A DNA stretch of 64,000 bases from an uncultured Bacillota bacterium (GCA_958352855.1 CATWQE010000005.1:25785-89784), one strand, 5' to 3'. Counted from the first letter of the stretch, positions 7,651-33,516 are shown. The notes: generated by a model from the sequence alone, not told the origin. Translations and numbers: made by a program.

Positions 7651-7688
7651 CTGACAACACAACAAATAATAAGTAAATAAATTGTACA

Positions 7689-7730
7689 AATACCCCTTTT
7701 CTGATGAAAGAGAGGGGTATTAATTTGTTT
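7689..7730 (+). terminator. Putative terminator after the GH63-like gene
   Basis: AATACCCC (7689-7696) pairs with GGGGTATT (7714-7721), followed by a T-rich stretch. Confidence 0.4.
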
Positions 7731-7766
7731 ATGAATATTATAAGTTCCAATGCATAGAAACAAGAA

Positions 7767-7985
7767 GTGAAAACAATGGAACAATATGATGATATTGATA
7801 CCAGAAGTCCTGGAGATGTGACCTGGCTGATGATACATAGCTTTTCGGAGGAAGAACAGAGATTTGAGCATGAAAAAATACAGAGTGTAGAACAGGTGAT
7901 TTTATCTAATTATGATGAGGTGAAGATAGAGAATGGTCAGGCAAAATTAAGGGCATATGAGACGTTGATAGCCAGGATAGAGTAA
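7767..7985 (+). pseudogene. Remnant of a GH13 alpha-glucosidase (C-terminal fragment)
   Basis: The 72-aa ORF (EQYDDIDTR...DVTWLMIHSFSEEEQRFEH...YDEVKIENGQAKLRAYETLIARIE) aligns by eye to two separated C-terminal segments of the intact GH13 at 8890-10542 (IEKYDDIDTKNY and EVTWMAVHNFSEVEQVFEC...YEERKIEKGKIRLRAYETMILEMGN). Confidence 0.6.
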
Positions 7986-8182
7986 AAGGGGAAATTGTTG
8001 TTTCACAGAGTTTTGTTTTTGTAAAAAAGTACTTGAAAAATGGAAAAAAGCCAGGAAAAACTTTGGGCATATTACGAATTGTAGTATATGAGAAGACATG
8101 GTAAAATCCTATTAAAAGAACAATCGTGTTGCAGGGTGGCTTGACCTTCATTTTATTATACATAGAATGGGGGTGGTGCTGA

Positions 8183-8372: not shown

Positions 8373-8889
8373 CATTTATACTATAGCATAATTATAAAGA
8401 GGATTCAATAGAAACAAAAATACATTTTTCTGATTAGGTAAAAATAAAGATAAACAGCAAAAATAACAGAGAGGCGGCACAGCAAATATGAACTATAAAA
8501 TTGCCTTGCTTTAAAAAAAACATTATCGTGAATTTTGTGAGGAAAGAATCAAAGAAAAGATGCAGTGAGTCTCTCAAGGATTGGTATGGATTTTCTGAGA
8601 TTTGAAAGTGATTTGGAGGAAGTAATTCTCCAGGACAGGTTTGCACAAGTGGTTCATGGATATGAGGGAAGATGGAAAAACTTTAAGACCATTGAAGAAA
8701 TTGAAGCAGAGGCAGCAAGAACTTGATGATTTGGAATATGGGAAACAGATTAGCTTTCAAATGGCATTGTATGAATATTCCAGACGGGCAGTTGCAAGCG
8801 TAAAAAAATATTTTAGGGAAGAAATCAGGGAGTAGAAGGATGGTTGCCCGTTCCGCCTATCAATGCTAAAATAAAATAAAAACGGGGAA

Positions 8890-18105: not shown

Positions 18106-19461
18106 TTAAACACTAATCCATCCCATAGCTTCTGATACTGCAAAAATCAGAACCAGTACCAGACATACAGGAGCAATCCATTTTAACATAATGGTGTAGA
18201 ATTTTTTCATCTTAAAGGAACCATTCAATTCTACCTCGTCAGAAACAGTCTTAGGACCGACAAAGTGACCAATGCAGATGCAGGTCAGGATTGCCACAAC
18301 AGGCATCAGAACACTGTTGCTGATAAAGTCGAAGAAATCCAGAAGCCCCAGTCCCAGAATCTTGATAAAGCTCAGTGGTCCAAAACCAAGAGAAACAATA
18401 GCTCCCAGAATCAAAACATAAATTGTAATGATTACGGTTGCTTTTTTGCGGCTCCAGCCCAGCTTATCCCGGATAATTGAAACATTAGTTTCCATCAGGG
18501 AAATAGAAGAGGTCAGGGCTGCGAATAATACTAATAAGAAGAATACAGCGCCAATTACACCGCCAAGAGTCATATCGTTAAATACTTTTGGAAGGGTAAT
18601 AAACATTAAGGAAGGTCCTTTTCCAAGGGCTGCTTCGTCTCCGCCGGAGAATACGAATACAGAGGGAACAATCAGAAGACCAGCCAGGAAAGCAATAGCA
18701 GTATCGAAAATCTCAATCTGGCGTACAGAAGTTTCCAGATGACTGTCTTTCTTCATATAAGAACCATATGTAATCATAATACCCATGGCAAGGGACATGG
18801 AGTAGAACAACTGTCCCATGGCAGCCAATACGGTTGTGGCAGAAAATTTAGAAAAATCAGGAAGCAGATAATACTTCACGCCTTCAGCAGCTCCCGGTCT
18901 GGTAACGCAGAAGATGCAGATTCCCACGATTAATACTACCAGCAGCGGCATCATGAAACGGCTTGCCCGTTCAATCCCTTTTTCCACACCAAAGATTACA
19001 ATGACGGAAGTCAGCAGAATGAAAACTGTAAACCAGATTACAGGGGAAACAGATTCACTGGTAAATCCTGTGAAAAAATCGTCTCCGGCTGCAGCGCTTA
19101 CCTGTCCGGTTACAAATGTGACCAGGTATTTGATGACCCATCCGCCGATGACACAGTAGTAAGGGGTAATAATAAATGGAACCACACAAGCCAGAACGCC
19201 TACAAACCCAAAACGTTTATCCAGCTTTTTAAATGCGCCGATAGCGCTGACGCCGGTTTTTCGTCCAATAGCGATTTCTGTAATCATCAAAGTAAAACCA
19301 AAAGTAACGGCCAGTATTAAGTACACCAGCAGAAAAATGCCCCCGCCATATTTTGCTGCCAGATATGGAAATCTCCAGAGATTTCCAAGACCTACTGCAG
19401 AGCCGGCAGCAGCAAGGACAAAGCCCATTTTGCTTGAAAATGTTCCTCGTTTTTTGTCCAT
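18106..19461 (-). CDS. Sodium-dependent transporter, NSS (SNF) family
   Basis: N-terminal GLGNLWRFPY NSS signature. 12 TM helices, 451 aa. Confidence 0.9.
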   Translation of the reverse strand: MDKKRGTFSSKMGFVLAAAGSAVGLGNLWRFPYLAAKYGGGIFLLVYLILAVTFGFTLMITEIAIGRKTGVSAIGAFKKLDKRFGFVGVLACVVPFIITPYYCVIGGWVIKYLVTFVTGQVSAAAGDDFFTGFTSESVSPVIWFTVFILLTSVIVIFGVEKGIERASRFMMPLLVVLIVGICIFCVTRPGAAEGVKYYLLPDFSKFSATTVLAAMGQLFYSMSLAMGIMITYGSYMKKDSHLETSVRQIEIFDTAIAFLAGLLIVPSVFVFSGGDEAALGKGPSLMFITLPKVFNDMTLGGVIGAVFFLLVLFAALTSSISLMETNVSIIRDKLGWSRKKATVIITIYVLILGAIVSLGFGPLSFIKILGLGLLDFFDFISNSVLMPVVAILTCICIGHFVGPKTVSDEVELNGSFKMKKFYTIMLKWIAPVCLVLVLIFAVSEAMGWISV

Positions 19462-19622
19462 AACAATCTCCTTCTATGATGAATTTATTAGTTTCCCGTT
19501 TTGGAGTGGTATAATATTAACGCCCCAAATAGGATGCTTAGGATTCATTATGCCATTGAATATAAGAAAAAACAAGATTTTTCTTCATAAAAATAAAGAA
19601 AATATAAAAATTCTTAAATTAC

Positions 19623-19651
19623 TTGACGTGAGAAAGGGAATATGCTATAGT
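19623..19651 (+). promoter_or_regulatory. Promoter of the infC-rpmI-rplT operon
   Basis: TTGACG (19623-19628), 17-bp spacer ending in TGC (extended -10), TATAGT (19646-19651). Confidence 0.6.
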
Positions 19652-19887
19652 ATCAAGGTCTGAAGAAAAAGAAAGCAGAGTATCCACTCTCACCTTAGCA
19701 CAAGAGCGTGACTAATGGTTTATACGTAAATAATGAGGCGCACAGCGTTTTTTTATGGGATAACAGGTGGATAGTATTGCAGATTCTGCACAGACTATTC
19801 ACTTTTTTCTTTCTTTCTTCTTTAAACGATTGGGATGGCTTGAGGGCTTGGAACAAGTGGTTATCAATATTATGGAGGTGCACTACT

Positions 19888-20394
19888 ATTAGCGATTTAA
19901 TGATCAACGAACAAATCAGAGACAGAGAAGTACGTCTTATTGGCGCAAACGGGGAACAGCTTGGAATCATGTCCGCCAGAGATGCGCAGAAACATGCAAT
20001 GGAAGCAGGCTTGGATCTTGTAAAGATTGCTCCTACAGCAAAGCCGCCGGTTTGTAAAATAATTGACTATGGCAAGTATAAGTACGAATTAGCCAGAAAA
20101 GAAAAAGAAGCTAAAAAGAAACAGAAAACCATAGAAATTAAAGAAGTGCGTTTATCCCCGAATATTGAGGAAAACGATTTGAACACAAAGGTCAACAATG
20201 CCAGAAAGTTCCTTACCAAAGGAAATAAAGTCAAAGTCACCCTGCGTTTCAGGGGCAGAGAAATGGCACATATGCAGAGCAGCAAACATATCCTGGATAA
20301 GTTCGCTGAGATTCTGTCCGACATTGCGGTTGTGGAAAAAGCACCGAAGGTAGAAGGCAGAAGCATGACTATGTTTTTGACAGAAAAACGTTAA
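19888..20394 (+). CDS. infC: Translation initiation factor IF-3 (probable ATT start)
   Basis: IF-3 N- and C-terminal domains (EVRLIGANGEQLGIMS, KVKVTLRFRGREMAH). In-frame ATT at 19888 lies 7 nt after GGAGGTG. The first ATG (19900) is 19 nt from the RBS. A non-AUG start is the conserved autoregulatory feature of infC. Confidence 0.8.
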   Translation: MSDLMINEQIRDREVRLIGANGEQLGIMSARDAQKHAMEAGLDLVKIAPTAKPPVCKIIDYGKYKYELARKEKEAKKKQKTIEIKEVRLSPNIEENDLNTKVNNARKFLTKGNKVKVTLRFRGREMAHMQSSKHILDKFAEILSDIAVVEKAPKVEGRSMTMFLTEKR

Positions 20395-20424
20395 TAAGAA
20401 AAAGAGTTTAAGGAGGACATAAAC

Positions 20425-20622
20425 ATGCCAAAAATGAAAACAACAAAAGCCGCTGCAAAGCGCTTCAAAACAACAGGAACAGGTAAATTAAAAAGAAATA
20501 AAGCCTACAAAAGCCATATCTTAACAAAGAAATCTCAGAAGAGAAAGAGAAATCTTAGAAAAGCAGCTATGACAGACGCAACAAATGTAAAGAGCATCAA
20601 GAAAATTTTACCTTACATGTAA
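20425..20622 (+). CDS. rpmI: 50S ribosomal protein L35
   Basis: 65 aa, [25 protein letters not shown]. Confidence 0.95.
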
Positions 20623-20679
20623 TTTGCTTGTAGGTAAAGGTGAAAGTCACAGAATTGTAATTATAGGAGGAAATTAAGA

Positions 20680-21036
20680 ATGGCAAGAATTAAAGGCGGT
20701 TTAAACGCTAAGAAAAAACACAATAGAGTATTAAAAATGGCAAAGGGCTACAGAGGCGCTCGTTCTAAACAGTACAGAGTAGCAAAACAGTCTGTAATGA
20801 GAGCTCTTACCAGCCAGTATGCAGGCAGAAAACAGAGAAAACGTCAGTTCAGACAGTTATGGATTGCTCGTATCAACGCTGCAGCAAGAATGAACGGTTT
20901 ATCCTACAGCAAATTTATGTACGGATTAAAACTGGCTAACGTTGACCTGAACAGAAAAGTATTAGCTGACATGGCAATCAACGATGCACAGGGATTCGCT
21001 ACATTAGCAGAGCTGGCAAAATCTAAATTAGCTTAA
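20680..21036 (+). CDS. rplT: 50S ribosomal protein L20
   Basis: 118 aa, [26 protein letters not shown]. Confidence 0.95.
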
Positions 21037-21046
21037 TGAAGTTTTG

Positions 21047-21084
21047 AAAAGAGACTATCGAATTATAAGATAGTCTCTTTTTTG
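21047..21084 (+). terminator. Rho-independent terminator after rplT
   Basis: AAGAGACTATC...GATAGTCTCTT followed by TTTTGG. Confidence 0.75.
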
Positions 21085-21088
21085 GTAG

Positions 21089-21117
21089 TTGAAATTTCCA
21101 TCAAAACCCAGTATAAT
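21089..21117 (+). promoter_or_regulatory. Promoter upstream of the flavodoxin/ferredoxin gene
   Basis: TTGAAA (21089-21094), 17-bp spacer, TATAAT (21112-21117). Confidence 0.55.
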
Positions 21118-21154
21118 TGTTTATTTATAAACAACAGAAAGGGGTAGCGTTATT

Positions 21155-21916
21155 ATGAGTGTATATGCCATTTATTTTAGCCCTACAAGAAGCACAGAAA
21201 AGATTGTAAAGATACTGGCCAGAGAATTTGGTAATTATGGGGAAATTGATTTAAGCAAACAAAGCTCAGGGGAAAACGTCAGAGCTTTTAAAGAAGAGGA
21301 TATTTGTATCTTTGGTGTGCCATCCTATGGCGGAAGAGTTCCGGCGCCAGCACTGGAGCGGATGAAGAAAATGAAGGGAAACCAAGCAACAGCAATTTTA
21401 GTTGCTGTGTATGGAAACCGGGCATATGAAGATACACTTTTAGAATTAAAGGAACAGGTAGAAGCCTGTGATTTCTTTGTGACAGGTGCAGTCTCCGCAG
21501 TGGCAGAGCATTCCATTATGCACCAGTTTGCAACAAAAAGGCCGGATAAAAAGGATAGACAGGAATTAAAAGAGTTTGCCATTAAGCTTGTAGAAAAAAT
21601 CAAAACAGGCCATGGAAAAGAAGAAATTACGGTACCTGGCAAGAAGCCATACCGCACCTATAAAGGAGTGCCTTTAAAGCCAAAGGCAAGTAAGCAATGT
21701 ACAGCATGTGGACTTTGCGCCCGCCTTTGTCCGGTAGGAGCTATCTCAGCAAAGGAGCTTCGAAAAACAGATAAGAGCAAATGTATTTCCTGTATGCGGT
21801 GTGTAGAGAATTGTCCGGTAAAGGCAAGAAAGGTCAGCAAATTAAAGGTAAAACTGACTTCTCTGAAAATGAAAAAAGCGTGTGCTGATCGAAAATCAAA
21901 CCAGTTATTTTTATAA
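21155..21916 (+). CDS. Flavodoxin-like domain fused to a 2x[4Fe-4S] ferredoxin domain (EFR1-family ferredoxin)
   Basis: N-terminal flavodoxin-like fold (VYAIYFSPTRSTEKI). C-terminal CTACGLCARLCP and CISCMRCVENCP cluster motifs. Confidence 0.7.
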   Translation: MSVYAIYFSPTRSTEKIVKILAREFGNYGEIDLSKQSSGENVRAFKEEDICIFGVPSYGGRVPAPALERMKKMKGNQATAILVAVYGNRAYEDTLLELKEQVEACDFFVTGAVSAVAEHSIMHQFATKRPDKKDRQELKEFAIKLVEKIKTGHGKEEITVPGKKPYRTYKGVPLKPKASKQCTACGLCARLCPVGAISAKELRKTDKSKCISCMRCVENCPVKARKVSKLKVKLTSLKMKKACADRKSNQLFL

Positions 21917-21934
21917 GAAAACGGAAATCAGAAC

Positions 21935-21985
21935 AGTCATGGTAGAAAAGGATGCCCTATCCAGAAAATACCATGACTTTTTCTT
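21935..21985 (+). terminator. Hairpin plus T-tract between the ferredoxin gene and rnfC (terminator or attenuator)
   Basis: AGTCATGGTA (21935-21944) pairs with TACCATGACT (21969-21978) around a 24-nt loop, then TTTTCTT. Confidence 0.4.
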
Positions 21986-22083
21986 ATATCTATGGAAAAA
22001 TAAACTTGCCAAAATAAGTACAATATGTTATTTTATTAAGGCATGTCAATTATTTAACGAAGAAAAGTGGAGGAAGACAGGGT

Positions 22084-23469
22084 ATGTGGAAAAAGAAAAC
22101 AAGTAAATTTCCCGGCGGAATTCATCCCACAGATGGTTATGATAAACTCATGACCATGAACCTGCCTGTTCAGGAATATTGGCCAAAGACTGTAACCATT
22201 TTGTCAGAACAGTCTTTTGGAGGAAGATGCAGACTTTTGGTCAAACCCAAGGATAAGGTAAAAGCAGGGGATTTGATTGGAACTGCAGAAGCCTTTATGG
22301 CAGCGCCTCTTCACGCAAGTGTAACAGGAGAAGTCCTGGAGGTGAAGGAAGTGATGAATCAGGGAAGAAAGATTCTGGCCTGTATTGTAGAGCGGGATGA
22401 AAACCAGGAATCTGCTGATACTAAGAAGGCCTATGAAACAGAGCTTGCGAACCTGGATGAGATTTCCAGAGAAGAGATTCTGGCAGGCATCCGGGATGGC
22501 GGTCTTACCGGTATGGGGGGCGCTGGATTTCCGACTCATAAGAAATATGAGACAGATAAGGAAATTACTACACTGCTGATTAATGGTGTGGAATGCGAAC
22601 CGTTTCTTACCTGTGATTACAGATTAATGATGGAGCAGAGCTTTGCATTGTTAAACGGTGCGGCCTTGTTATTTAAGGCATCTGGCGCAAAAGAAGCTGT
22701 CATTTGTATTGAAGATAATAAACCGGAGGCTATCCGTACCTTGAAGGAATTGCTGGCACAGTCAGGAAATATGCCGGATAAAAAAGGGTTTGCAAATATC
22801 CGGGTGGAAGAACTGCCTACCCAATATCCTCAGGGAGGAGAGCGCCAGCTTATTCAGGCAGTTGTGAAAAAAGAAGTACCGGCAGGGGGACTTCCGGCTG
22901 ACGTAGGAGTGATTGTTTCCAATATTGGAACAGCTAAAGCCGCTGCGGATATGATTCTGGGAGGAATTCCTCTGATACGGAGAAATGTCACAGTAACAGG
23001 CTGTGTAAAACAACCTGGCAACTATCTGGTTCCCATTGGGACTTCTGCAAAAGAATTAGTAGAGCTTTGCGGTGGCGTTACTGTAAAAGAGAACAGAATT
23101 ATTGCAGGGGGACCTATGACAGGACCTTGTGTGGCTTCTGACTGGAATGGAGAAGAAGAGTTATTTTATGTGACAAAAAACACTTCCGGCATTCTGGTGC
23201 TGCCAGACAGCAAGGAGGAGGAACAGCCTTGTATTCGCTGCTCAGGCTGCGCAAATGTGTGTCCGGCAGGATTGGTGCCTTATCAGATTGAATACGCCTT
23301 TTTAGAGGAAGATTATGATTTGTGCGAACAGCTTCATGCCAGTGAATGTATTGCCTGTGGATGCTGCTCTTATATCTGTCCGGCAAAAAGAGAACTTTCT
23401 GTGCGGACCAGAATGGCAAGAGACATGGTGAAACAGAGAATGCGTGAAAGGGCGGTGAAGAAAGCATGA
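22084..23469 (+). CDS. rnfC: Rnf/Nqr-type electron transport complex subunit C
   Basis: GGAGFPTHKKY NADH/FMN-binding motif. Two C-terminal 4Fe-4S motifs (CIRCSGCANVCP, CIACGCCSYICP). Confidence 0.85.
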   Translation: MWKKKTSKFPGGIHPTDGYDKLMTMNLPVQEYWPKTVTILSEQSFGGRCRLLVKPKDKVKAGDLIGTAEAFMAAPLHASVTGEVLEVKEVMNQGRKILACIVERDENQESADTKKAYETELANLDEISREEILAGIRDGGLTGMGGAGFPTHKKYETDKEITTLLINGVECEPFLTCDYRLMMEQSFALLNGAALLFKASGAKEAVICIEDNKPEAIRTLKELLAQSGNMPDKKGFANIRVEELPTQYPQGGERQLIQAVVKKEVPAGGLPADVGVIVSNIGTAKAAADMILGGIPLIRRNVTVTGCVKQPGNYLVPIGTSAKELVELCGGVTVKENRIIAGGPMTGPCVASDWNGEEELFYVTKNTSGILVLPDSKEEEQPCIRCSGCANVCPAGLVPYQIEYAFLEEDYDLCEQLHASECIACGCCSYICPAKRELSVRTRMARDMVKQRMRERAVKKA

Positions 23470-24434
23470 GTCAGACAAGAGTGATTAACGGACCTCATAT
23501 CCGTACAGAGCGCACAACCAGAAGCGTTATGATGAATGTGTCTATTTCCCTGGTTCCTGCCCTTCTTGGCGCGATTTACTTTTTTGGCATCAGGGCATTA
23601 TATCTGGCAGGGCTTTCCATTACGGTGTGTGTTCTTACAGAATTTTTCTGGCAGAAATTAACGAAAAAACAGGTAACAGCAGGAGATTTCAGCGCTGTGG
23701 TTACCGGACTTTTGCTGGTACTGAACATGCCGGTTACAGTTCCCATATGGACCCTGGTGGCAGCAGATGTATTCAGTATTCTGGTTGTAAAGCAGATGTT
23801 TGGTGGAATCGGAAATAACTTTGTCAATCCGGCATTGATGGGAAGACTTTTGACCATGGTTGCCTGGCCGGGGGCGGTGATGCAGTATGTGGCTCCAAGA
23901 ACCTTAGAAACAGATGCGGTGTCTGCGGCAACGGTTTTAGGCGCTGTGAAAACCGGTGGAGAGCAGGGCTACAGCTACCTGCAGATGTTTTTAGGAGAGA
24001 CACCGGGAGCTATGGGAGAGACCAGCAAACTGTTGTTGCTGGCAGGCTTTGCATATATGTGTTACAAGGGAATTGTCAATGCAGAAGCATGTCTTACCTA
24101 TATTGGAACTGTGGTAGTGCTGACCTTTGTTTTTGGCCCGGAAGGGCTTTTTACTGGAGATATTCTCCTGAATCTTTTCGGAGGCGGACTGATTATGGGC
24201 GGATGCTATATGTTATCTGACTATGCCTTTGTGTCCAGAAGAGGAAAGCTGCTTTATGCAGTGACAGCAGGTGTGATTACTGCGGCAATCCGAATTTTCA
24301 GTGTTTATCCGGAGGGAATCTGCTTTGGTATTTTAACAGCAAACTGTATGGCAGGAATGCTGTCCTTAGTGTATCAAAAGCATGTATACGGAGTTTCAGA
24401 AAAAAGAGGCTTAAATTGGAGGAAGAATCGATGA
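23466..24434 (+). CDS. rnfD: Rnf/Nqr-type electron transport complex subunit D
   Basis: Polytopic membrane protein with NqrB/RnfD-like N-terminus and flavinylation-type motif TDAVSAATVLG. ATGA start/stop overlap with rnfC. Confidence 0.85.
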   Translation: MSQTRVINGPHIRTERTTRSVMMNVSISLVPALLGAIYFFGIRALYLAGLSITVCVLTEFFWQKLTKKQVTAGDFSAVVTGLLLVLNMPVTVPIWTLVAADVFSILVVKQMFGGIGNNFVNPALMGRLLTMVAWPGAVMQYVAPRTLETDAVSAATVLGAVKTGGEQGYSYLQMFLGETPGAMGETSKLLLLAGFAYMCYKGIVNAEACLTYIGTVVVLTFVFGPEGLFTGDILLNLFGGGLIMGGCYMLSDYAFVSRRGKLLYAVTAGVITAAIRIFSVYPEGICFGILTANCMAGMLSLVYQKHVYGVSEKRGLNWRKNR

Positions 24435-25735
24435 AAAATAAAAATGTAAGAGGGCTTCTTGCCCTGGTTGTGGTGACAGCTCTTTCTTTTGGAGTGATTT
24501 TAGGCTCAAAGGCACTGGCGCAGGATACAGGAGCCGGAAATGGGTCAGGGGAAGCAAAGGTTCTGGAAGAACTGGATACCAAGGGCGCTGAAAATATTCA
24601 GAAAGCAGTAAAAACAGACAAGGGTTATGTGGTTACTGTAAAGAAAAAAGGCTATGCCAGCGATATTGTGATGAATGTTTCCTTTGATGAAAAAGGAGAA
24701 ACTGTGACAAAAGTAGAAGTCACAGAGCAGAATGAAACCGAAGGTCTGGGCGCTAAGATTGCAGATGCAGAGTTTTTAAGCCAGTTTGAAGGGGTAAAAG
24801 CTCCGGTGGTTCTGCCAGGCATGAAGCTGGAGGGAGACAGCCAGGAAGAAAACAGCACAGAGGAATTAAAGGATGCTGTTTTTGCAGACGGAACTTATGA
24901 AGCAAAAGGCGAACCAATGGATGGTTATACAGACCAGGTGAACATGACTGTAAAAGACGGAAAGATTACCGAAGTGGTATGGGAATCCGTAGGAGAAGAT
25001 GGAAGCAAGAAAAGCGTGCTGTCTGAAAGCGGAGAATATGTGATGACAGAAGACGGTCCAACCTGGAAGGAACAGGCAGAAGCCATGGCAGCAGCCTTAG
25101 TAGAGAACCAGTCACTGGATTTTGCAAAGCTGGATGAGCAGGGAAAAACCGATGCAGTATCAGGTGTGAGCATTTCCGTAGGCGGATTTGTAGATTTGGC
25201 CCAGCAGTGTATGAAAGAAGCTGCCGGCATTACAGAAACACCGGTTTTACAGGATGGAACCTATGAGGCAAAAGGTGAGCCGGCAGATGGTTATACAGAC
25301 CAGGTGAACATGACTGTAAAAGACGGAAAGATTACCGAAGTAGTATGGGAATCTGTAGGAGAAGACGGAAGCAAGAAAAGCGTACTGTCTGAAAATGGAG
25401 AGTATGTGATGACAGAAAACGGTCCAACCTGGAAGGAACAGGCAGAAGCCATGGCAGCAACTCTGGTAGAGAACCAGTCCTTAGATTTTGCGAAGCTCAA
25501 TGAACAGGGAAAAACCGATGCAGTATCAGGCGTTAGTATTTCTGTAGGTGGATTTGTAGATTTAGCGCAGCAGTGTCTGAATCAGGCTGCCGGAATCGAA
25601 GAAACAGAAGAAGAGGAAGCAGAAACACCGGCACAGGGAACACAGGTAGATGCAGTGTCCGGCGCTACCGTTTCTTCCACAGCAGCAGTAACAGGAATTA
25701 ATGATGCTTATGCATTTTTGCAGACAGTGAAATAA
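24431..25735 (+). CDS. rnfG: RnfG/NqrC-like FMN-binding subunit expanded by two nested FMN_bind-like domains
   Basis: Signal/anchor helix, then ETEGLGAKI (start of an FMN_bind domain). Two tandem repeats of about 120 aa each end in KTDAVSGVSISVGG. Canonical flavinylation motif VDAVSGATVSS appears only at the C-terminus. Start at 24431 behind GGAGGAAG, overlapping the rnfD stop (ATGA). Confidence 0.8.
   Translation: MKNKNVRGLLALVVVTALSFGVILGSKALAQDTGAGNGSGEAKVLEELDTKGAENIQKAVKTDKGYVVTVKKKGYASDIVMNVSFDEKGETVTKVEVTEQNETEGLGAKIADAEFLSQFEGVKAPVVLPGMKLEGDSQEENSTEELKDAVFADGTYEAKGEPMDGYTDQVNMTVKDGKITEVVWESVGEDGSKKSVLSESGEYVMTEDGPTWKEQAEAMAAALVENQSLDFAKLDEQGKTDAVSGVSISVGGFVDLAQQCMKEAAGITETPVLQDGTYEAKGEPADGYTDQVNMTVKDGKITEVVWESVGEDGSKKSVLSENGEYVMTENGPTWKEQAEAMAATLVENQSLDFAKLNEQGKTDAVSGVSISVGGFVDLAQQCLNQAAGIEETEEEEAETPAQGTQVDAVSGATVSSTAAVTGINDAYAFLQTVK
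24887..25610 (+). repeat. Tandem direct repeat, about 2 x 366 bp, inside rnfG
   Basis: Unit 1 begins GACGGAACTTATGAAGCAAAAGG at 24887 and unit 2 begins GATGGAACCTATGAGGCAAAAGG at 25253. The units are near-identical by eye, and the encoded 122-aa units differ at fewer than about ten residues. Confidence 0.9.
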
Positions 25736-25754
25736 GAAAAGCGGAGGATACGAT

Positions 25755-26525
25755 ATGAAGTTAAAATATCCGGCAGAAGCATTTGCTTTTGGGATCGTAC
25801 TGTTTTCTGCGGGAATGAAAGAGGCCTTTGCAGCAGGAATTCTGGTAATCCTGGCGACTGTTTTTGCAGAAGTTCTAAGAAATCTGTTAAAAGACTGGGT
25901 TCCTGAGTGGAGTCTGTATTTATGTGTTTGCATAGGGACCGTAGCTGTGTGTTCTTCTGTATTCCTGCTTGGATTTACTACTCTTGGAATTCCGGTTGAC
26001 AATACAGGAATGTGGATTATGACCTGTATTTTGGGACTTTTTGTGGTGAAACATGTGCTTACAGGAGCCATTGACGGAGAATATGGAGAGCTTTTCTGGG
26101 AATGTGCCATTGCCTGGGGATTCTGGGTTCTTCTGGCAGTTGCAAGAGAATTTTTCGGCGCGGGAACCATTTTCGGCAACAGCATTTATCAGGGCGAATT
26201 CCAGTCTAAGATTTTCCAGGATACCATGTTTGGTTTCCTTACCGCAGGTATGACCCTTGCCTTTACCAACGGAGTTCTGAAGAAAAAAAGTACCAATACA
26301 CACAGTCTCCTGTTGGTAATTCCTCTGGCAGTGTTTATGCGGCCCTTTACCATGGAAAGCTTCGGAGCCCTTTTAGGACAGATTTGGACCATTGCAGTTC
26401 CGGTTATCTTGTTTTTGTCCGTGAAAGTAACTTTGAAATTTGCTCGGACCAGCAGGGCGTATAAAGGCCTTCCGGTGGAAATGCTGGCAATGGGATTCAT
26501 TTATATGATTTTGAGTATTTATTAA
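25755..26525 (+). CDS. Divergent RnfA/RnfE/NqrDE-family-like membrane subunit (only one copy present)
   Basis: Six or more TM helices. Motif AREFFGAGTIFG resembles the REx(I/L)GxGTLFG motif of RnfE/NqrD. Lacks the GLCP and TNC motifs of typical RnfA/E, so the assignment is tentative. Confidence 0.45.
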   Translation: MKLKYPAEAFAFGIVLFSAGMKEAFAAGILVILATVFAEVLRNLLKDWVPEWSLYLCVCIGTVAVCSSVFLLGFTTLGIPVDNTGMWIMTCILGLFVVKHVLTGAIDGEYGELFWECAIAWGFWVLLAVAREFFGAGTIFGNSIYQGEFQSKIFQDTMFGFLTAGMTLAFTNGVLKKKSTNTHSLLLVIPLAVFMRPFTMESFGALLGQIWTIAVPVILFLSVKVTLKFARTSRAYKGLPVEMLAMGFIYMILSIY

Positions 26526-26530
26526 AAAAT

Positions 26531-26576
26531 ACCCCTGGCAAACCAGATGTAAAAAGGTTTGTCTGGGGTGTTTTTA
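26531..26576. terminator. Terminator between the Rnf-like cluster and the convergent reductase gene
   Basis: ACCCCTGGCAAACC...GGTTTGTCTGGGGTG then TTTTT. Confidence 0.55.
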
Positions 26577-26590
26577 TAAAGAGGGAGGAA

Positions 26591-28549
26591 TCAAATTGTC
26601 ACACCGGCACAGTATCCAGTACGCATTGCTTCCTGAATTTTGGAAGGCTTTCGACAGTCCCCTACAAAGATGACTTCTTCTGCCAGTTCATGCCAGTTTA
26701 CGAAATTAGGAAGAGTTCCTCTCATACCGGCAGCTATCAGAACAGTATCAGCTTCTAACAACATTTCTTTACCGCTTTCATCTACCATTTTTACACCGTT
26801 ATCTTCTATGGACAATACTTTTGCATTGCAGTAAGAGGTCACTGCATCCTCCAGTTTTTCAAGAAGATGACGCCAGTGGATATAAGGTGCATCTTTTGCC
26901 AGACCGTCCCGCATTTCAATAATAGAAACGTCATGACCTTTCCAGGCCAGCTCCAGACCTTCTTCACAGCCGGCCAATCCGCCGCCGATAATCACAACTT
27001 TTTTTCCTACAGACAAATGTTTCTTATACAAGTCTGTGATATGGTGGGAAATGGGTTTATCAATACCTGGAATTGGTGGAATGACAGGTTCGGAACCACA
27101 TGCCACAATTAAAGTATCGGGTTTTTCCTGTGCAATGAGTTTTTCTGTTACTTCCGTATTAAGACGAAGCTCCAGATTAGGGGTTCTCTGCACATTGATT
27201 ACCATGGACTTTAAAAACTGCACAATATCTTTTTTGAAGGAAATCTGTTTTGCGTAATCAAGACTGCTTGCCAGATGGTCATTTTTTTCACAGAGAATTA
27301 CATGGTGTCCTCTTTTTGCAGCAGTAATAGCTGCTTCCATGCCACCAGGACCGCCACCTGCAACCAGCACTTTTTTTGCATAAGGTACAGGTTCTTCTTT
27401 GCGGGTGTTTTCGTATTCTCTTCCCCAGGTAGGATTTACGCTACAGCGAAGGACACCGGAAGAAAATGGAACATGAGGGATAAATCCTGCGCTGATGCAG
27501 GTTTCACAACGAATACATTTGGTAATTTCTTCTGGTTTACCCTGACGTGCTTTTCTTGGCCAGTTAGGGTCTGCAATAAACTGACGTCCAACTACAACAA
27601 AATCAGCCTTTTTTTCTTCCAGTACATTTTCCATAAAATCAGGATCATTAATGCCGCCTACCACAGAAACAAGGGATTTGTGAACTACTGCTTTGATTTT
27701 AGAAGCATTTCCTACATTACATCCTCTTGGATAGAATACAGTAGGGAACATTCTGGCAGAACTACTGGTATCATGGAAAGTAGCCGCTGATACATGAATA
27801 ATATCTACTTTTCCATCCAGCATTTTTGCAAATTCAATGGTTTCTTCAATAGGAATACCGCCTTCTGTTTCCTCTTCTCCACTTAGGCGGAACTCAATAA
27901 TCAGATTCGGACATTTCTGACGAATGCGATCTACAATCATTAATGGAAAACGTGCCTTGTTTTCAATGGAACCCCCATATTTATCTGTTCTGTGATTATT
28001 CAAATCAGAAAGAAACTGGCTGATAAGCCATCCATGGCCACCATGAATATTTACAATATCACATCCGGCAAATTCCGCCATATAAGCAGCCTGAGCATAA
28101 GCATCAGCAATCATATCCATCATATTTTCATCCATTTCAATGACCTTATCACCATACAAATTGGCTTCCATAGGACTTGGACCGATCACATAGCCTCCTT
28201 CAGCGAGAAAAGCACCTTTGGCACGACAGCCGGAATGAGTTAGTTCAATGGAAGCCAAAGCTCCCCACTTATGAACTGTATCAACTGTCTGAATCAGAGA
28301 TGGAAGAAGGGTTTCGTCATCCAGATGCGGCATGGTAGGATGGGCATGGTCAGTAAGACTATGTACGCCTGCTTCTCCAAGTGTGACAATACCAGCGCCA
28401 CCTTTAGCAATGGAGTTATACATTTCGTAGGCTTCACGAGTATAAAACGGTACATCTCCACTAGGTGACATGGGTGCAGATTCAATACGGTTTTTAATAT
28501 AACTATTTCTAATTCGAATAGGTTCAAACAAATGTGGATAATGGAACAT
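26591..28549 (-). CDS. OYE-like FMN oxidoreductase fused to an FAD/NAD(P)-binding domain (2-enoate reductase / 2,4-dienoyl-CoA reductase FadH-like)
   Basis: N-terminal Old Yellow Enzyme TIM-barrel (LFEPIRIRNSYIKNRIESAPMS). Fe-S motif CIRCETCISAG...C. C-terminal GAGPGGMEAA Rossmann FAD-binding domain. 652 aa. Confidence 0.8.
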   Translation of the reverse strand: MFHYPHLFEPIRIRNSYIKNRIESAPMSPSGDVPFYTREAYEMYNSIAKGGAGIVTLGEAGVHSLTDHAHPTMPHLDDETLLPSLIQTVDTVHKWGALASIELTHSGCRAKGAFLAEGGYVIGPSPMEANLYGDKVIEMDENMMDMIADAYAQAAYMAEFAGCDIVNIHGGHGWLISQFLSDLNNHRTDKYGGSIENKARFPLMIVDRIRQKCPNLIIEFRLSGEEETEGGIPIEETIEFAKMLDGKVDIIHVSAATFHDTSSSARMFPTVFYPRGCNVGNASKIKAVVHKSLVSVVGGINDPDFMENVLEEKKADFVVVGRQFIADPNWPRKARQGKPEEITKCIRCETCISAGFIPHVPFSSGVLRCSVNPTWGREYENTRKEEPVPYAKKVLVAGGGPGGMEAAITAAKRGHHVILCEKNDHLASSLDYAKQISFKKDIVQFLKSMVINVQRTPNLELRLNTEVTEKLIAQEKPDTLIVACGSEPVIPPIPGIDKPISHHITDLYKKHLSVGKKVVIIGGGLAGCEEGLELAWKGHDVSIIEMRDGLAKDAPYIHWRHLLEKLEDAVTSYCNAKVLSIEDNGVKMVDESGKEMLLEADTVLIAAGMRGTLPNFVNWHELAEEVIFVGDCRKPSKIQEAMRTGYCAGVTI

Positions 28550-28655
28550 AATGACCCTCCCTATAAAAAAATACGATTTTTTTGTTTAAAACAACAGTTT
28601 TCTTTCGCTTTTTCTATGCCTTTATGTTCATATTAACAGTTTGACCTTGGGAATG

Positions 28656-29948
28656 TTATTCAATATTTTGATGCTCTGTTTCAATATTTTGATATTTTAG
28701 AGCATGGTTTTTTCTGTATTCCCCAGGAGAGATGCTGCAAAGGCGTTTAAAACAAGTGCAGAAATAGCTGTAGCTGTTAATTCCTACACGATAAGCAATC
28801 TGTTCAATAGGGATGGAGGTTTGTGCCAGGAGTTCTTTGCTGTGGTCAATGCGGCATGCAGTAAGATACTGAACAAAGGTCATACCAAATTCTTCGCGGA
28901 ATACACGAGTAAAATGACCTTCACTGAAACCTATCAGGCTGGACAAGGTTCCAAGACGGATATTTTCCATGTAATGGGTTTCAATATATTCACTTACAGG
29001 AACTTTAAACAGATATTCTGTACCTGTATTCGCTTCATTCAAACTATGTGTGAATGAGTAGAAAAACTCCATAAAATATTTTCTGGCATCAGCAATAAAA
29101 CTACATGATAGAATCTGTGCAATCGCTGTGTTGCTGCATTCCGTCATTTGCTGTTTGGGAATGCCGCAGCGTACACCATAATCACTGATTTTATGAAGAA
29201 GACGTATAAGCTCCATTTTTGCTTCTTCTGGTTTTAACTGTCCATCTAATAATACCTGCATAATAGATTGCAGCACGCATTCCATTCGCGAAGTGCTGGA
29301 ACGGGAAAAAGCTGTCATGAGTTCTGGATAGAAATGATTCAGGCTGGTTTCTTTTGTAGGGCTATGTTGTTCTACATCAGCCAGAAAAATGCTGAATTCT
29401 TTTCCGGAGAAATAGCTTTTATTTAGCGCCAGATTCATATTGGGCTGCATTTGAGAATATTGCCAGATTCGGCTACAGCGCTGGCTGATACAGATGGAGA
29501 TGGTATAATCACTCTTGCTGCGGATAGCTTCCTTGAATGAGTCTGCAATTTTTGAGAGATAATTGCGGATATCGTTTTTTTCTTCTTTTTCACAGCATAA
29601 AAAGCAGATTAGTTTGTCAATACCTACCAGATTTGCCATAAATCCTTTTAAGCCCAACTCTTGCATACGTCCTCTTAACAGATTGATAAGGAGAGTTTTT
29701 TGATAAAATTCCTGAGTTATCTGCATTTTGCTGCTGTAATTATAATAATCATCCACCTGAATTAAAAAGAAACGATTTGGCAGTGTATCCAGATTAACGG
29801 TTGCCAGAGCTTCTTTTACTTTTTCAGGACGTATATTATTGTAAATCAGACTATAGGAAAGTTCGCAAGCCAGTACATTGTGCATTGTAATATAATCTTT
29901 CCAATAATCCAGGTCTTTATATGTTAAAACTTTTTCGTTATCTTTCAT
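28656..29948 (-). CDS. AraC family transcriptional regulator
   Basis: C-terminal AraC HTH (IEQIAYRVGINSYSYFCTCFKRLCSISPGEYRK). N-terminal domain of about 300 aa with unknown ligand specificity. Confidence 0.8.
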   Translation of the reverse strand: MKDNEKVLTYKDLDYWKDYITMHNVLACELSYSLIYNNIRPEKVKEALATVNLDTLPNRFFLIQVDDYYNYSSKMQITQEFYQKTLLINLLRGRMQELGLKGFMANLVGIDKLICFLCCEKEEKNDIRNYLSKIADSFKEAIRSKSDYTISICISQRCSRIWQYSQMQPNMNLALNKSYFSGKEFSIFLADVEQHSPTKETSLNHFYPELMTAFSRSSTSRMECVLQSIMQVLLDGQLKPEEAKMELIRLLHKISDYGVRCGIPKQQMTECSNTAIAQILSCSFIADARKYFMEFFYSFTHSLNEANTGTEYLFKVPVSEYIETHYMENIRLGTLSSLIGFSEGHFTRVFREEFGMTFVQYLTACRIDHSKELLAQTSIPIEQIAYRVGINSYSYFCTCFKRLCSISPGEYRKNHALKYQNIETEHQNIE

Positions 29949-30169
29949 AATACTGGTCAGTCCTTTCTCTTTTGCTGAAATTATTTTAATTCTATTCTAT
30001 CAAAAATGGTAAAAGCATACAATATATTAAAATTTTTAAATAATACATCAATATTATAGAATTACTTTCTTGCTTTAGCAGAGTATAATTCAATCAAACT
30101 TTTTTCTATGCCGGAGAAAAAATAAAAGAACCATGTTGACAGTAGGGCATGGTGGGAAGGGAGATTTTT

Positions 30170-31582
30170 ATGAGTAATGGAATGATTCCAACAATTATCG
30201 TTGTATTGGTACTTTATTTTGCTGCAATGGTGGTCATTGGATGGATGGGGCGAAGTAAGGCAAGTAACTTTGAGGGATATTTAAGTATGGGACGTTCTGC
30301 TGGCGTACTGCTTTTAATGGGAGGCGCTATTGGAGGGCAGATTGGAAATGGATTTGTAGTAGGAGGTGCTGCTGAAGGTTCTCTATCCGGTCTGGCAGGT
30401 TCTGCTTATGGTATTGCCTGTGCGTTGTCCACAGTTATGGTTGCCCTGTTTTTGAATAATTTCATTTACAATCATGGTTATATGTCTATGGCAGACTATA
30501 CCAGAGAACGCTATCACAATGAAATACCAGGAACAATTTATGATTTAAGTACTGCAATCTCTTCCATTGGATTGATTGCAGGACAGATTATGGCAGGTAA
30601 AGCTTTATTTGAAGCTCTGGACCTTCCGGGAAATGTAGGTGCCATTGCCATTGCTGTAGTTGTATTGCTGTATTCTCAGCTTTCCGGACTTTGGGGAGCA
30701 TTTGCAACCTCTGTGGTTCAGACAGGAGTCATCCTTGTTGGTCTTGTAGCTACTACGGTTGTTCTTTTCGCAAGAGGTGCAGTAGGGGATATGAGTGCTG
30801 CTATTGAAGCAGGAACTATTGCAAGCTCTTCACTGGATATGAGTGGACTTTCAGTAGCAGGTTTTGCAGGTATGATGCTTCCTCTGTTATTTGGAATGGT
30901 AACAGACCAGCCTACCTATCAGCGTGTCAATTCAGCGAAAAGTGCAAAGATTTCACGTATTGCCTGTTATCTTTCCTGTCTGGTTATGATTCCTCTGGCA
31001 TTAATGCCGGCATTCATTGGTTCTTATGGTGCGTATAAATATGGAGCCAGTGGAAACAGTGCATTTTTTGATGTGATTTTAAATGAACTTCCGGCAATTG
31101 TGTGTGCTTTAATTATTGCAGCAGTTCTGGCAGCCGTTATGTCTACTATTGACTGCGGTTTGATTACCATGTCAACGGTTCTTACAAGAGATATCTGGCA
31201 GGGAGCATTAAAGAAGAACCCATCAGAAGCACAGTTAAAGAAAATTACCCTGGTAGTAAACATTGGATTTATGTTTACCTCTACAGCTTTGGCACTGTCT
31301 GCAAGCAGCATTTTGGGATTATTAAATTCTGTATATTCTTTCCTGGCAGCGGCATGTTTTGTTCCGTTTGTAGGAGGGATTGTATGGAAAAAGGGAAATG
31401 CAAGAAGTGCAGTAGCATCCTCTATTGTAGGTGTTCTGACCGTCTTGATTAGTTGGATTCCAGGCGTGGTATTTCCACTTGGAAATATTATTCCAGCCAG
31501 CCTGTTCCCAATTATTCCTTCTGCAATCGCTTACTTCCTGGTAAGTCTGATTCCGTCTTCAGAAGGTACAGTGAAGGCATAG
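30170..31582 (+). CDS. Sodium:solute symporter (SSS) family transporter
   Basis: 13 predicted TM helices with an SSS-type fold. ATG at 30170 follows GGGAAGGGAGA. Divergently transcribed from the AraC gene. Confidence 0.75.
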   Translation: MSNGMIPTIIVVLVLYFAAMVVIGWMGRSKASNFEGYLSMGRSAGVLLLMGGAIGGQIGNGFVVGGAAEGSLSGLAGSAYGIACALSTVMVALFLNNFIYNHGYMSMADYTRERYHNEIPGTIYDLSTAISSIGLIAGQIMAGKALFEALDLPGNVGAIAIAVVVLLYSQLSGLWGAFATSVVQTGVILVGLVATTVVLFARGAVGDMSAAIEAGTIASSSLDMSGLSVAGFAGMMLPLLFGMVTDQPTYQRVNSAKSAKISRIACYLSCLVMIPLALMPAFIGSYGAYKYGASGNSAFFDVILNELPAIVCALIIAAVLAAVMSTIDCGLITMSTVLTRDIWQGALKKNPSEAQLKKITLVVNIGFMFTSTALALSASSILGLLNSVYSFLAAACFVPFVGGIVWKKGNARSAVASSIVGVLTVLISWIPGVVFPLGNIIPASLFPIIPSAIAYFLVSLIPSSEGTVKA

Positions 31583-31697
31583 ATATTAAAGGACTGTTGT
31601 ATGAAACAACTATCAAGATAGGTGTTGATACAACAGTCTTTTGTAATATGAGGAAACAAATAATCCTATAAAATCAAAGAAATGCAACTCATGGATA

Positions 31698-32741
31698 CTA
31701 TGAATCAGAAACTGCCTGCATCTCAATCTCTTCTTCAAACCCATCGCTATAATGCATCTTATAATCATCCGTAATAAACACAGCCTGGACATCAGGCAGA
31801 CTGTTTACCAGCTCCATCCCTTTCTCAAGTCCCAGGGCAAAACAGGAGGTAGAAAGCCCGTCTCCATCCACAGATTTGTCTGAAATAATGGTAACAGAGA
31901 CTAAGTGATTGTCATAGGGCATCCCGGTATCAGGATTTAAAATATGGTGATAAAAGGTTCCGTCCTGCTCAAAATACCGCTCATAAATCCCGGAAGAGAC
32001 TACAGATTTATCCGTAATATCCATGACTGCAATGGTTTCGCTGCGGTCAGCAAAGGGCTTCTGGATACCAATGCGAAAGGGACTGCCATCTGGTTTATTT
32101 CCCACGCAAAGCACGTTTCCCCCCAGGTTAATAGTGGCGCTTTTTACTCCATGTTCCAGAAGAAAGTCTTTGATTCTGTCAGCAATATAGCCCTTGGCAA
32201 TGGCGCCAAGATCCAGCATCATGCCTTCTTTGGCAAAGGTAATCTCTTCTTTGGAAACCTGTACATCCTGGTAGTTTACCAGGGGAAGGGCTGCGTCCAG
32301 TTCCTCTTTTGAGGGTACTTTTTTCTGCTCAGAAGTGAAATCCCACAGAGAGGATACAGGGCCTATGGTAATGTCAAAGGCGCCTTTAGAAAGCTTACCG
32401 TATTCCAGCCCTTTGGAAATAAGTTCTGCGGTTTCCGAAGAGACGGTGTAGGCATGATTCTGTAGGGGAAGGGTGCCATGATTAAGCTGATAAAGCTCAC
32501 TGGTTTTTAAGGTGCGGCTGAAAAGCTGTTCATAATCATCACACAGGTTCATCGCTTCCTGAAGGAGTTTTTCGTCTGTGGAATCATACAGGGTCAGGGT
32601 AACTACGGTATTTAATTTAAAAGCAGTAGAAGAAAGTGGCTCCTGCTTTTTTTCTTTTTTCTCATACAGGGCTGCAAATACCAGAAGCACGATTACGCCC
32701 AGAAAACAGCAGATGCCAATAAATTTTTTTCTCTGTGTCAT
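31698..32741 (-). CDS. apbE: FAD:protein FMN transferase (ApbE family), membrane-anchored
   Basis: N-terminal anchor helix. ApbE signatures LDLGAIAKGYIADRI and HHILNPDTGMP. Confidence 0.85.
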   Translation of the reverse strand: MTQRKKFIGICCFLGVIVLLVFAALYEKKEKKQEPLSSTAFKLNTVVTLTLYDSTDEKLLQEAMNLCDDYEQLFSRTLKTSELYQLNHGTLPLQNHAYTVSSETAELISKGLEYGKLSKGAFDITIGPVSSLWDFTSEQKKVPSKEELDAALPLVNYQDVQVSKEEITFAKEGMMLDLGAIAKGYIADRIKDFLLEHGVKSATINLGGNVLCVGNKPDGSPFRIGIQKPFADRSETIAVMDITDKSVVSSGIYERYFEQDGTFYHHILNPDTGMPYDNHLVSVTIISDKSVDGDGLSTSCFALGLEKGMELVNSLPDVQAVFITDDYKMHYSDGFEEEIEMQAVSDS

Positions 32742-32847
32742 AAAATCTCCTTATGAAATCAATCTTTTTATCTTTCCCATTGTAAAATGACAATATCCAT
32801 GTGTCAAGATTCATATGATAGAATCAACGAAGAAAACGAGGCGCAAA

Positions 32848-33516
32848 ATGAAAAAAGGAATTTTGATATTGGGAGTCATCATTGCCCTTGCAGGGATGTT
32901 TTTTCAGGGAAAGGGAATGGAACGGGCAGTTGAAACAGTGGGGGAATTGTCCCACAAGGAGCATCCCAGGGTAGCTCTGACTTTTGATGATGGCCCGCAC
33001 ATGGTGTATACAGAAATGCTGCTGGATGGATTGAAGGAGAGGGGAATCTGCGCTACCTTTTTTCTCATAGGAAAGAATATTGAAGGCAATGAAGAACTGG
33101 TGCAGAGAATGCAAAAGGAGGGGCATCTCATTGGCAACCATACTTATCATCATGTGAATTTAAAGGAGCTTTCCCGAAAAGAAGCAGAACAGGAAATCCA
33201 AAAGACCGGGAATAAGATTTATGAAAGCGCCGGCATCTGCACTGCCTTTGTCCGCCCGCCTTTTGGGGAATGGAGGAAAAATCTGGATTTAGATATGACT
33301 ATGATTCCAGTGTCCTGGAATATTGATTCTCTGGACTGGACCACAGAAAATACGGAAAAAATTATAAAAAGGGTAGTGAAAGATGTGGAAGAAGATGATA
33401 TTATTTTAATGCATGATGTTTATAAAACCTCCGTAGAAGCAGCGCTTCAGATTGTGGATATTCTGAAGGAACGGGGGTATGAATTTGTCACAGTGGATAA
33501 ATTGCTGCTGGAATAG
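32848..33516 (+). CDS. Polysaccharide deacetylase family protein (NodB homology domain), secreted
   Basis: Signal peptide followed by RVALTFDDGPH. His-His pair near the C-terminus. Start at 32848 (RBS GAGG). The longer frame from 32815 has no RBS. Confidence 0.8.
   Translation: MKKGILILGVIIALAGMFFQGKGMERAVETVGELSHKEHPRVALTFDDGPHMVYTEMLLDGLKERGICATFFLIGKNIEGNEELVQRMQKEGHLIGNHTYHHVNLKELSRKEAEQEIQKTGNKIYESAGICTAFVRPPFGEWRKNLDLDMTMIPVSWNIDSLDWTTENTEKIIKRVVKDVEEDDIILMHDVYKTSVEAALQIVDILKERGYEFVTVDKLLLE

Follow-up and report, generated by a model that had tools for sequence, protein, structure and literature searches.

In many gut anaerobes, Rnf is the principal site of energy coupling. Can such a complex still carry electrons once its ferredoxin-side subunits are gone, and where would the electrons go? 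This question is raised by four consecutive genes, rnfC, rnfD, an enlarged rnfG (rnfG*) and a gene for a 256-aa membrane protein (X256), in a 64-kb stretch of DNA from an uncultured Bacillota bacterium (GCA_958352855.1 CATWQE010000005.1:25785-89784). We refer to the whole stretch as the window. Our analysis suggests that this operon, serviced by the product of a nearby apbE gene, is probably a reduced derivative of RnfCDGEAB that would transfer electrons one way, from NADH to an acceptor outside the membrane.

An initial annotation had described the region as an atypical five-gene Rnf-like cluster, counting an EFR1-type ferredoxin gene in front of the four. All five open reading frames (ORFs) were found where they had been placed. 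Gene identities were assigned by Pfam and NCBIfam family scans, with scores compared to the cut-off of each model. Four of the five products could be assigned (EFR1 ferredoxin, RnfC, RnfD and RnfG), and X256 matched no model. Orthologous loci were collected by scanning one genome per GTDB species, which yielded 70 loci with X256 relatives.

X256 resembles RnfE joined to the latter half of RnfA

X256 is encoded on the plus strand at 25755-26525. It returned nothing from Pfam or NCBIfam even at E<=10, and the PF02508 (Rnf-Nqr) model matched neither X256 nor the seven divergent relatives that were scanned. In a phmmer search of all Protein Data Bank (PDB) chains, X256 matched only 7zc6_E, the RnfE of C. 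tetanomorphum (E 1.5e-4), and a 25-sequence X256 profile also matched RnfE in the PDB (E 6.8e-5). When the X256 profile was searched against 1.84 billion representatives, 118 family clusters were recovered, the weakest matches being bona fide PF02508 proteins. An AlphaFold model of X256 had nine helices, with a predicted local distance difference test (pLDDT) score of 74 and a predicted template-modelling score of 0.72. The only structurally coherent Foldseek matches to this model were RnfE and NqrD, so the best fold match falls within the NqrDE/RnfAE group.

We then compared profiles using hhalign. The references were small RnfE/NqrD and RnfA/NqrE alignments built from E. coli RsxE and RsxA and the solved chains, and the query was a 74-sequence X256 alignment that included divergent representatives. 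With a narrow 23-sequence X256 alignment the probability was 30-36%, and with the divergent representatives it rose to 88-95%. Residues 15-185 of full-length X256 aligned with residues 29-220 of RsxE (89%, E 2e-6). When the protein was divided, residues 1-180 matched RnfE/NqrD (88%, E 3e-6) and not RnfA (10%). Residues 181-256 matched transmembrane helices (TM) 5-6 of RnfA/NqrE (94.6%, E 7e-8), and RnfE only at E 0.5. A more permissive alignment paired X256 176-256 with RsxA 93-190, which corresponds to TM4-6. Reversed and column-shuffled controls scored at most 15.4, compared to 43-45 for the real alignments (44.7 for the tail).

These comparisons, all by remote methods (profile-profile alignment and fold), indicate that X256 is an RnfE-like six-helix core (residues ~15-180) with RnfA's second three-helix repeat, TM4-6 (residues ~176-256), fused to it. 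The initial annotation had called the protein a divergent RnfA/E-like protein. Its relation to RnfE is upheld in both fold and sequence, but it is not a simple paralogue. RnfA and RnfE are inverted relative to one another (PMC12174285). The C-terminus of RnfE and the start of RnfA TM4 would therefore lie on one side of the membrane, making a fusion of this kind topologically natural. The window's gene order corresponds to clostridial rnfCDGEAB after collapse of the E/A junction and loss of B. It fits a single deletion running from the end of rnfE to the middle of rnfA in an ancestral rnfCDGEAB operon, together with the loss of rnfB.

The ferredoxin side appears to have been removed

In Rnf and Nqr complexes, four cysteines, two each from RnfA and RnfE, coordinate a [2Fe-2S] cluster halfway across the membrane, and the canonical electron path runs from RnfB to the RnfA/E [2Fe-2S] cluster, and on through RnfG and RnfD to RnfC (PMC12174285). 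None of the ligand positions is occupied by cysteine in X256. Residues 1-56 are cysteine-free, so the 'LGLCP' ligand site is lost. The 'VTNC' ligand site of RnfE was aligned by hhalign with 'GLFVVKH' of X256. The 'TTNC' ligand site of RnfA fell in an alignment gap, and RnfA TM1-3 are absent. No invariant cysteine was found in the X256 family. On these alignments, the membrane [2Fe-2S] centre cannot form in X256, because no cysteine is present at any ligand position. Two divergent representatives of the family, P0146 ('IFCS') and P0148 ('IFCT'), have a cysteine beside the N-terminal 'LFS' position, which is conserved. It may be what is left of the 'LGLCP' ligand of RnfE, or may have arisen by chance.

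No second gene of the A/E type was detected either. When C. tetanomorphum RnfE and E. coli RsxA served as tblastn queries, X256 was the sole match in the window and the 70 loci, and antisense shadow ORFs had no family matches. No rnfA, rnfE or rnfB gene was found within ±10 kb in the ~70 related species, the rest of the host genomes not having been searched. Likewise, neither an RnfB-type gene in the operon nor a conserved extra gene in the 70 loci was found. The absence of RnfB and of a second A/E paralogue at the cluster, as first annotated, thus holds for the 64-kb window and the 70 loci. Where canonical Rnf has separate RnfA and RnfE proteins that form an inverted heterodimer with four [2Fe-2S] cysteines, the module has one fused protein, and an RnfB polyferredoxin is lacking within the operon and the loci covered. 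The ferredoxin-side electron path therefore appears to have been removed rather than replaced, which argues against a role for the EFR1 protein as a stand-in for RnfB.

The NADH half is intact at the level of sequence

RnfC, the NADH- and FMN-binding subunit, is encoded at 22084-23469 on the plus strand (TIGR01945, 411 bits; cut-off 246) and matched the Pfam families RnfC_N, Complex1_51K and SLBB. The GMGGAGFP motif and two CxxCxxCxxxCP motifs were kept in 55 of 56 orthologues. RnfC therefore has the NADH/FMN site and the motifs for two [4Fe-4S] clusters that are characteristic of this subunit in Rnf.

The membrane subunit RnfD (322 aa; 23466-24434, plus strand) matched PF03116 as its sole Pfam family over residues 7-309 (301 bits) and also matched TIGR01946 (229 bits; cut-off 207). 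Among solved chains it matched 7zc6_D (E 1e-65) and 9eri_D (E 6e-60). Its flavinylation motif, DAVSAAT (residues 150-156, nt 23913-23933), aligned with 'TDTVTTAT' of A. woodii, and the form DAVS[SAG]AT was present in 54 of 59 orthologue ORFs. At the level of the motif, the flavinylated threonine of RnfD is kept.

RnfG* is encoded at 24431-25735 on the plus strand. Its likely start is the ATG at 24431, giving 434 aa as called in locus L074, and the ORF listing starts at the TTG at 24416. The protein begins with a hydrophobic membrane anchor, and no lipobox cysteine was found in this N-terminal segment. The anchor is followed by an FMN-binding domain that is split by an insertion: residues 79-139 of C. 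tetanomorphum RnfG aligned to RnfG* 66-127, and residues 155-183 to RnfG* 409-437. Because the domain is split, the rnfG model TIGR01947 scored only 62 bits (E 7e-17), under its cut-off of 102. The insert consists of two FMN-binding domains resembling PplA and 2KZX (2kzx_A, E 4e-20). RnfG* also matched the PplA model NF041941 with E 5e-25, although the 88 bits were under the cut-off of 325. The inserted domains are encoded by a tandem DNA repeat (24878-25543, plus strand; copies 24878-25177 and 25244-25543) with 88% nucleotide identity and 366-nt spacing.

The expansion of RnfG with several flavinylation sites had been recognised in the initial annotation, and we located three motifs, two inserted DAVSGVS motifs (nt 25151-25171 and 25517-25537) followed by the native DAVSGAT (25649-25669). 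RnfG* thus combines the membrane anchor and SGAT site of a canonical RnfG, both halves of whose FMN domain align, with additional flavin sites. Orthologues carried 1, 2 or 3 flavinylation motifs, and their lengths clustered near 310-330 and 430-490 aa. Several public contigs start or are interrupted within rnfG (L071-L073) and the gene call is split in L076, probably owing to the tandem repeat.

The apbE gene (31698-32741, minus strand; PF02424, 310 bits) encodes an FAD:protein FMN transferase that is predicted to be the flavinylating enzyme for RnfD and RnfG*. Its location near an anchored protein bearing Dxx[ST]G[AV][ST] motifs is that of the broad class of ApbE-dependent systems. Taken together, the RnfC motifs, the RnfD threonine and the RnfG SGAT site indicate that the NADH half of the complex is intact.

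The four-gene unit and apbE are conserved in Lachnospiraceae

Nearly all hosts of the 70 loci were Lachnospiraceae, including Blautia (among them B. hansenii, B. caecimuris and B. glucerasea), Mediterraneibacter, Merdimonas, Marvinbryantia and Lachnoclostridium. Among the loci with sufficient upstream sequence, rnfC, rnfD and rnfG preceded X256 in 47 of 48. The only exception was an apparent collapsed assembly, L063, a metagenome-assembled genome in which a partial rnfC is joined straight to the C-terminal half of X256 (8874-10327) and rnfD and rnfG are missing. Either the deletion is genuine or the assembly has collapsed here.

Clustering of all ORFs in the loci revealed only five broadly shared families: X256, RnfG, RnfD, RnfC and ApbE. 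The sole other widely conserved neighbour of the operon was therefore apbE, present in 46 loci. Usually the gene is convergent to X256 and directly downstream of it. In 24 of 63 loci it was convergent and no more than 400 bp from X256, and in 35 of 63 the distance was no more than 5 kb. Comparison with two relatives gave ratios of nonsynonymous to synonymous substitution rates (dN/dS) of 0.02-0.13 over rnfC, rnfD and X256. The value for X256 was ~0.08, the same as for rnfC, which places X256 under purifying selection. Across sequences sharing 56-89% identity, 40 positions of X256 were invariant.

In the window, apbE is separated from X256 by 5 kb that hold an island of three genes. An identical X256 protein was found on contigs with this island (L071, L074) and on contigs without it (L072, L073). 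The gap is thus a strain-variable insertion, and the island lies outside the module. This agrees with the proposal, made when only the distant apbE of the window was known, that ApbE belongs to the system.

A metagenome scan with an alignment of divergent X relatives gave 9 loci. In five loci (L084, L085 and L087-L089), relatives at 25-33% identity retained the order rnfC-rnfD-rnfG-X, with one insert in rnfG. In metagenome locus L086, the rnfG slot between rnfD and X (~7330-8000) is occupied by a membrane-anchored protein of ~230 aa. This replacement has two near-identical tandem repeats of the FMN_bind type, with DGVSGAS occurring twice.

The EFR1 gene is a non-conserved neighbour

The EFR1-family ferredoxin gene (21155-21916, plus strand; NF038196, 82.3 bits, cut-off 75, plus Fer4 families) encodes a flavodoxin-like N-terminal part, with a weak flavodoxin match, and two [4Fe-4S] (Fer4) motifs. 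As an RnfB-type protein it was rejected (TIGR01944, 30 bits, under the cut-off of 68.7). The gene adjoined rnfC in 6 of 48 loci, all from the closest relatives, and is not a conserved part of the module.

A promoter before this gene and a hairpin after it had been proposed, and both signals were found. The promoter-like site, TTGAAA-17-TATAAT, lies at 21089-21117 on the plus strand and has 11 of 12 consensus matches. The terminator-like hairpin, followed by a U-run, lies between the EFR1 gene and rnfC (21930-21986, plus strand; -19.6 kcal/mol, z -4.5), and none of 200 shuffled sequences folded equally well. A second, TG-extended promoter-like site, TTGCCA-17-TATTTT, precedes rnfC (22006-22034, plus strand) with 9 of 12 matches, identified by consensus match only. 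Consensus matching also indicated that the number of promoter-like sites in the region was not above shuffled expectation. With a hairpin and a second promoter-like site between the EFR1 gene and rnfC, the layout reads as a single, monocistronic EFR1 gene next to the four-gene operon rnfC-rnfD-rnfG*-X256, judged from consensus matches and folding only. The gene content of the five-gene cluster was thus correct, and the unit is better drawn as one gene beside four.

A proposed one-way route and its alternatives

With the RnfB to RnfA/E input gone and the RnfC to RnfD to RnfG path intact, the RnfG flavin would become the end of the chain. NADH would be oxidised at RnfC, and electrons would pass from the RnfC Fe-S clusters through RnfD (riboflavin/FMN) to the RnfG FMN, opposite to the normal Rnf direction. 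The added FMN domains lie in a loop of the RnfG FMN domain, predicted to be on the membrane's outer face. As the chain would have no continuation to RnfA/E and RnfB, electrons would exit through these domains to an acceptor outside the membrane, which may be a flavinylated reductase, free flavin, a metal or oxygen. X256 may serve as a cofactor-less scaffold on which RnfD and the RnfG anchor are positioned much as in the native complex. Outward flow from NADH is thermodynamically easy and inward flow to NAD+ would need a very low-potential donor outside, which favours a one-way route. Outward transfer to extracytoplasmic flavinylated carriers, rather than ferredoxin:NAD+ oxidoreduction, had been suggested in the initial annotation. 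It seems to us the most economical reading. More tentatively, it is possible that Rnf in many human-gut Lachnospiraceae has become a quinone-free and cytochrome-free NADH:extracellular-acceptor oxidoreductase, by an E-A deletion fusion, the loss of RnfB and the cluster, and the extension of the RnfG flavin chain.

Several points weigh against this proposal. The main caveat is that two of the divergent loci, L079 (5561-8766) and L081 (1-2517), have rnfC-rnfD-X without any FMN-binding gene, and the core trio in these loci may work without an outer flavin carrier. In both, X is at ~30% identity, the rnfD stop overlaps the X start and the contig is short; the RnfD motif of L079 is GALNSAT, in which the aspartate is lost. 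Both the direction in which electrons would flow and the acceptor are inferred, and no conserved terminal reductase or acceptor gene was found beside the operon in the 70 loci. The X256 model is of moderate confidence, the best model having a pLDDT of 74 and the other four 50-55. The front of the tail alignment, corresponding to TM4, had low per-column confidence. Finally, the search for rnfA, rnfE and rnfB covered the loci ±10 kb, so that mixed complexes are conceivable.

Canonical Rnf is common in Lachnospiraceae. If the genome holds a canonical rnf operon at another site, the C, D and G subunits encoded here could be alternative partners for its RnfA, RnfE and RnfB. The product would be another Rnf isoform, in which the multi-FMN RnfG adds a branch leading outward. 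The ±10 kb scope of the search leaves room for such an operon, and for complete RNF clusters known to have a multi-flavinylated RnfG, branched (bifurcated) electron transfer has been proposed (PMC8238504). However, X256 occupies the operon position of RnfE, has its fold and is under purifying selection, and would compete with the RnfE/RnfA pair for the same site. No rnfA, rnfE or rnfB gene lay near the operon in any of the ~70 species. We therefore consider a hybrid complex unlikely.

We also have little confidence that RnfC, RnfD and X256 are a functional core independent of outer flavins, with RnfG* as an accessory. Such a core might drive ion pumping through RnfD using NADH, or reduce a substrate in the membrane or on its cytoplasmic face. 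L079 and L081 would be examples, as they have no FMN-binding gene between or near the three. Yet these two short contigs are the only cases without G. Within the Lachnospiraceae clade, 47 of 48 loci have rnfG*, and among further neighbours apbE alone is conserved. Other distant relatives still encode an FMN-binding protein at this place, and one of them has exchanged rnfG for the tandem FMN_bind protein.

The complex might still be a ferredoxin:NAD+ oxidoreductase. In that case the EFR1 protein, as suggested in the initial annotation, or some other soluble ferredoxin would take the place of RnfB, and RnfA/E would be replaced by X256 as a homodimer or with a partner encoded elsewhere, likewise as first suggested. 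The EFR1 gene lies directly upstream of rnfC in this genome and in its closest relatives, and X256 does have the RnfE fold. Against this, the EFR1 gene adjoins rnfC in only 6 of 48 loci, compared to 47 of 48 for the four-gene unit, and it is set apart from rnfC by the hairpin and the separate promoter-like site. Since X256 has no ligand cysteines, there would be no membrane redox centre to lead from a cytoplasmic ferredoxin to RnfG. A homodimer or partner is not needed, because the last ~80 residues of X256 already align to RnfA TM4-6. These results make a retained ferredoxin function improbable. That the operon is a decaying, functionless rnf remnant is scarcely credible: of six canonical subunits, two and a half are missing, as is a cofactor site, but the ORFs are intact in >60 species, dN/dS is low, the 40 invariant positions of X256 persist at 56-89% identity, and the family extends to 25% identity with the same gene partnership.

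Relation to known systems

Like canonical RnfCDGEAB of C. tetanomorphum (7ZC6) and A. woodii (9ERI), the proposed one-way module has C, D and G homologues in the order C-D-G-(E...) and covalent-FMN sites in D and G, whose maturation by ApbE is implied here by the adjacent apbE. It differs in that RnfB is absent, RnfA is cut to TM4-6 and fused to an RnfE-like protein, the four [2Fe-2S] cysteines are lost and RnfG has one or two extra FMN domains. With RnfB, half of RnfA and the cysteines lost, the leg linking ferredoxin, RnfA/E and RnfG would be unable to run.

The two-subunit NQR/RNF-like systems are likewise partial versions of Rnf/Nqr, in which only one transmembrane leg of the two is kept. 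Their RnfD carries an NqrF-type NAD-binding domain (PF00175) as a fusion and is accompanied by an RnfG-like protein (Méheust et al. 2021, PMC8238504). One-way electron transfer has been proposed for them, starting at NAD(P)H and ending at an extracytoplasmic FMN-binding domain (PMC8238504, PMC10979944). In contrast, the module has a separate and complete RnfC, and its RnfD has PF03116 only, which places it outside that class. The RnfD flavinylation threonine, reported lost in those systems (Huang et al. 2024, PMC10979944), is kept here, as is a subunit derived from RnfE/A. The NQR/RNF-like systems occur mainly in Actinobacteria and the candidate phyla radiation (CPR), whereas the module is found in Lachnospiraceae.

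Listeria-type flavin-based extracellular electron transfer (EET; Ndh2, EetA/B, PplA and FmnB/ApbE) shares with the module an ApbE-flavinylated multi-FMN surface protein, NADH-derived electrons and a Gram-positive host. PplA is a separate lipoprotein, whereas here the PplA-like domains, which match NF041941, lie inside RnfG*. The operon has no Ndh2, EetA/B or quinone step, and the membrane would be crossed via RnfD and RnfG; no Ndh2- or Eet-like proteins were found among the window ORFs scanned. Complete RNF clusters with a multi-flavinylated or cytochrome-fused RnfG (PMC8238504) and the Methanosarcina Rnf with MmcA likewise have an outer subunit extended with redox cofactors, an extension interpreted as a branch towards acceptors outside. 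Those are full complexes, defined by RnfB, whereas in the module electrons could leave by the outward branch alone.

There are therefore precedents both for a multi-flavinylated RnfG and for one-way export by Nqr/Rnf-like systems (PMC8238504, PMC10979944). In the literature searched, whose coverage was incomplete, no earlier description of a partial or truncated rnfCDG arrangement was found, only complete operons, and the accessible part of the PMC8238504 supplement had no Blautia entries. Within that literature, a conserved cut-down Rnf with a fused E-A subunit is previously undescribed; it is related to the known one-way systems but differs from them in architecture. X256 is now annotated as 'hypothetical protein' and has no family model, and surveys that define RNF by RnfB miss these clusters (PMC8238504).

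The operon is a concrete candidate route (RnfC to RnfD to RnfG-FMNn) for electron export by Gram-positive fermenters without quinones or cytochromes, and would concern Blautia, Mediterraneibacter and related abundant gut genera. If the proposal is true, quinone-less fermenters would have a direct respiratory-type outlet for NADH, possibly ion-coupled through RnfD. Which leg of Rnf moves the ion is an open question in the field (PMC12174285). The module bears on this question as a natural experiment, in which RnfC, RnfD and RnfG with a cofactor-less RnfE/A shell separate the RnfD leg from the RnfA/E leg.

Neighbouring features

The next gene after X256 is convergent and follows a terminator, as first annotated. 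The bidirectional terminator-like hairpin lies at 26525-26576 (-26.5 kcal/mol, z -4.7 on the plus strand; -17.3 kcal/mol, z -2.6 on the minus strand). The gene beyond it (26591-28549, minus strand) encodes an Fe-S flavoenzyme of the old yellow enzyme (OYE)/2,4-dienoyl-CoA-reductase type. A BilR or BaiCD identity was rejected for this enzyme, which scored ~400 bits compared to cut-offs of 750-825. An AraC regulator (28656-29948, minus strand) and an SSF transporter (30149-31582, plus strand), likewise assigned by family scans, complete the strain-variable island.

No Rfam family match that would indicate a regulatory RNA 5' of rnfC was obtained within 19000-33000. Two sub-threshold matches were observed in this range. 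A match at 19020-19114 on the minus strand to mir-1010, a eukaryotic microRNA (35 bits compared to 70), lies inside an SNF-family transporter gene and is almost certainly due to chance. The other, to the ribosomal protein L20 leader RF00558 (19667-19816; 33 bits compared to a gathering score of 58.7), adjoins the upstream side of infC-rpmI-rplT, which is the expected place for such a leader.

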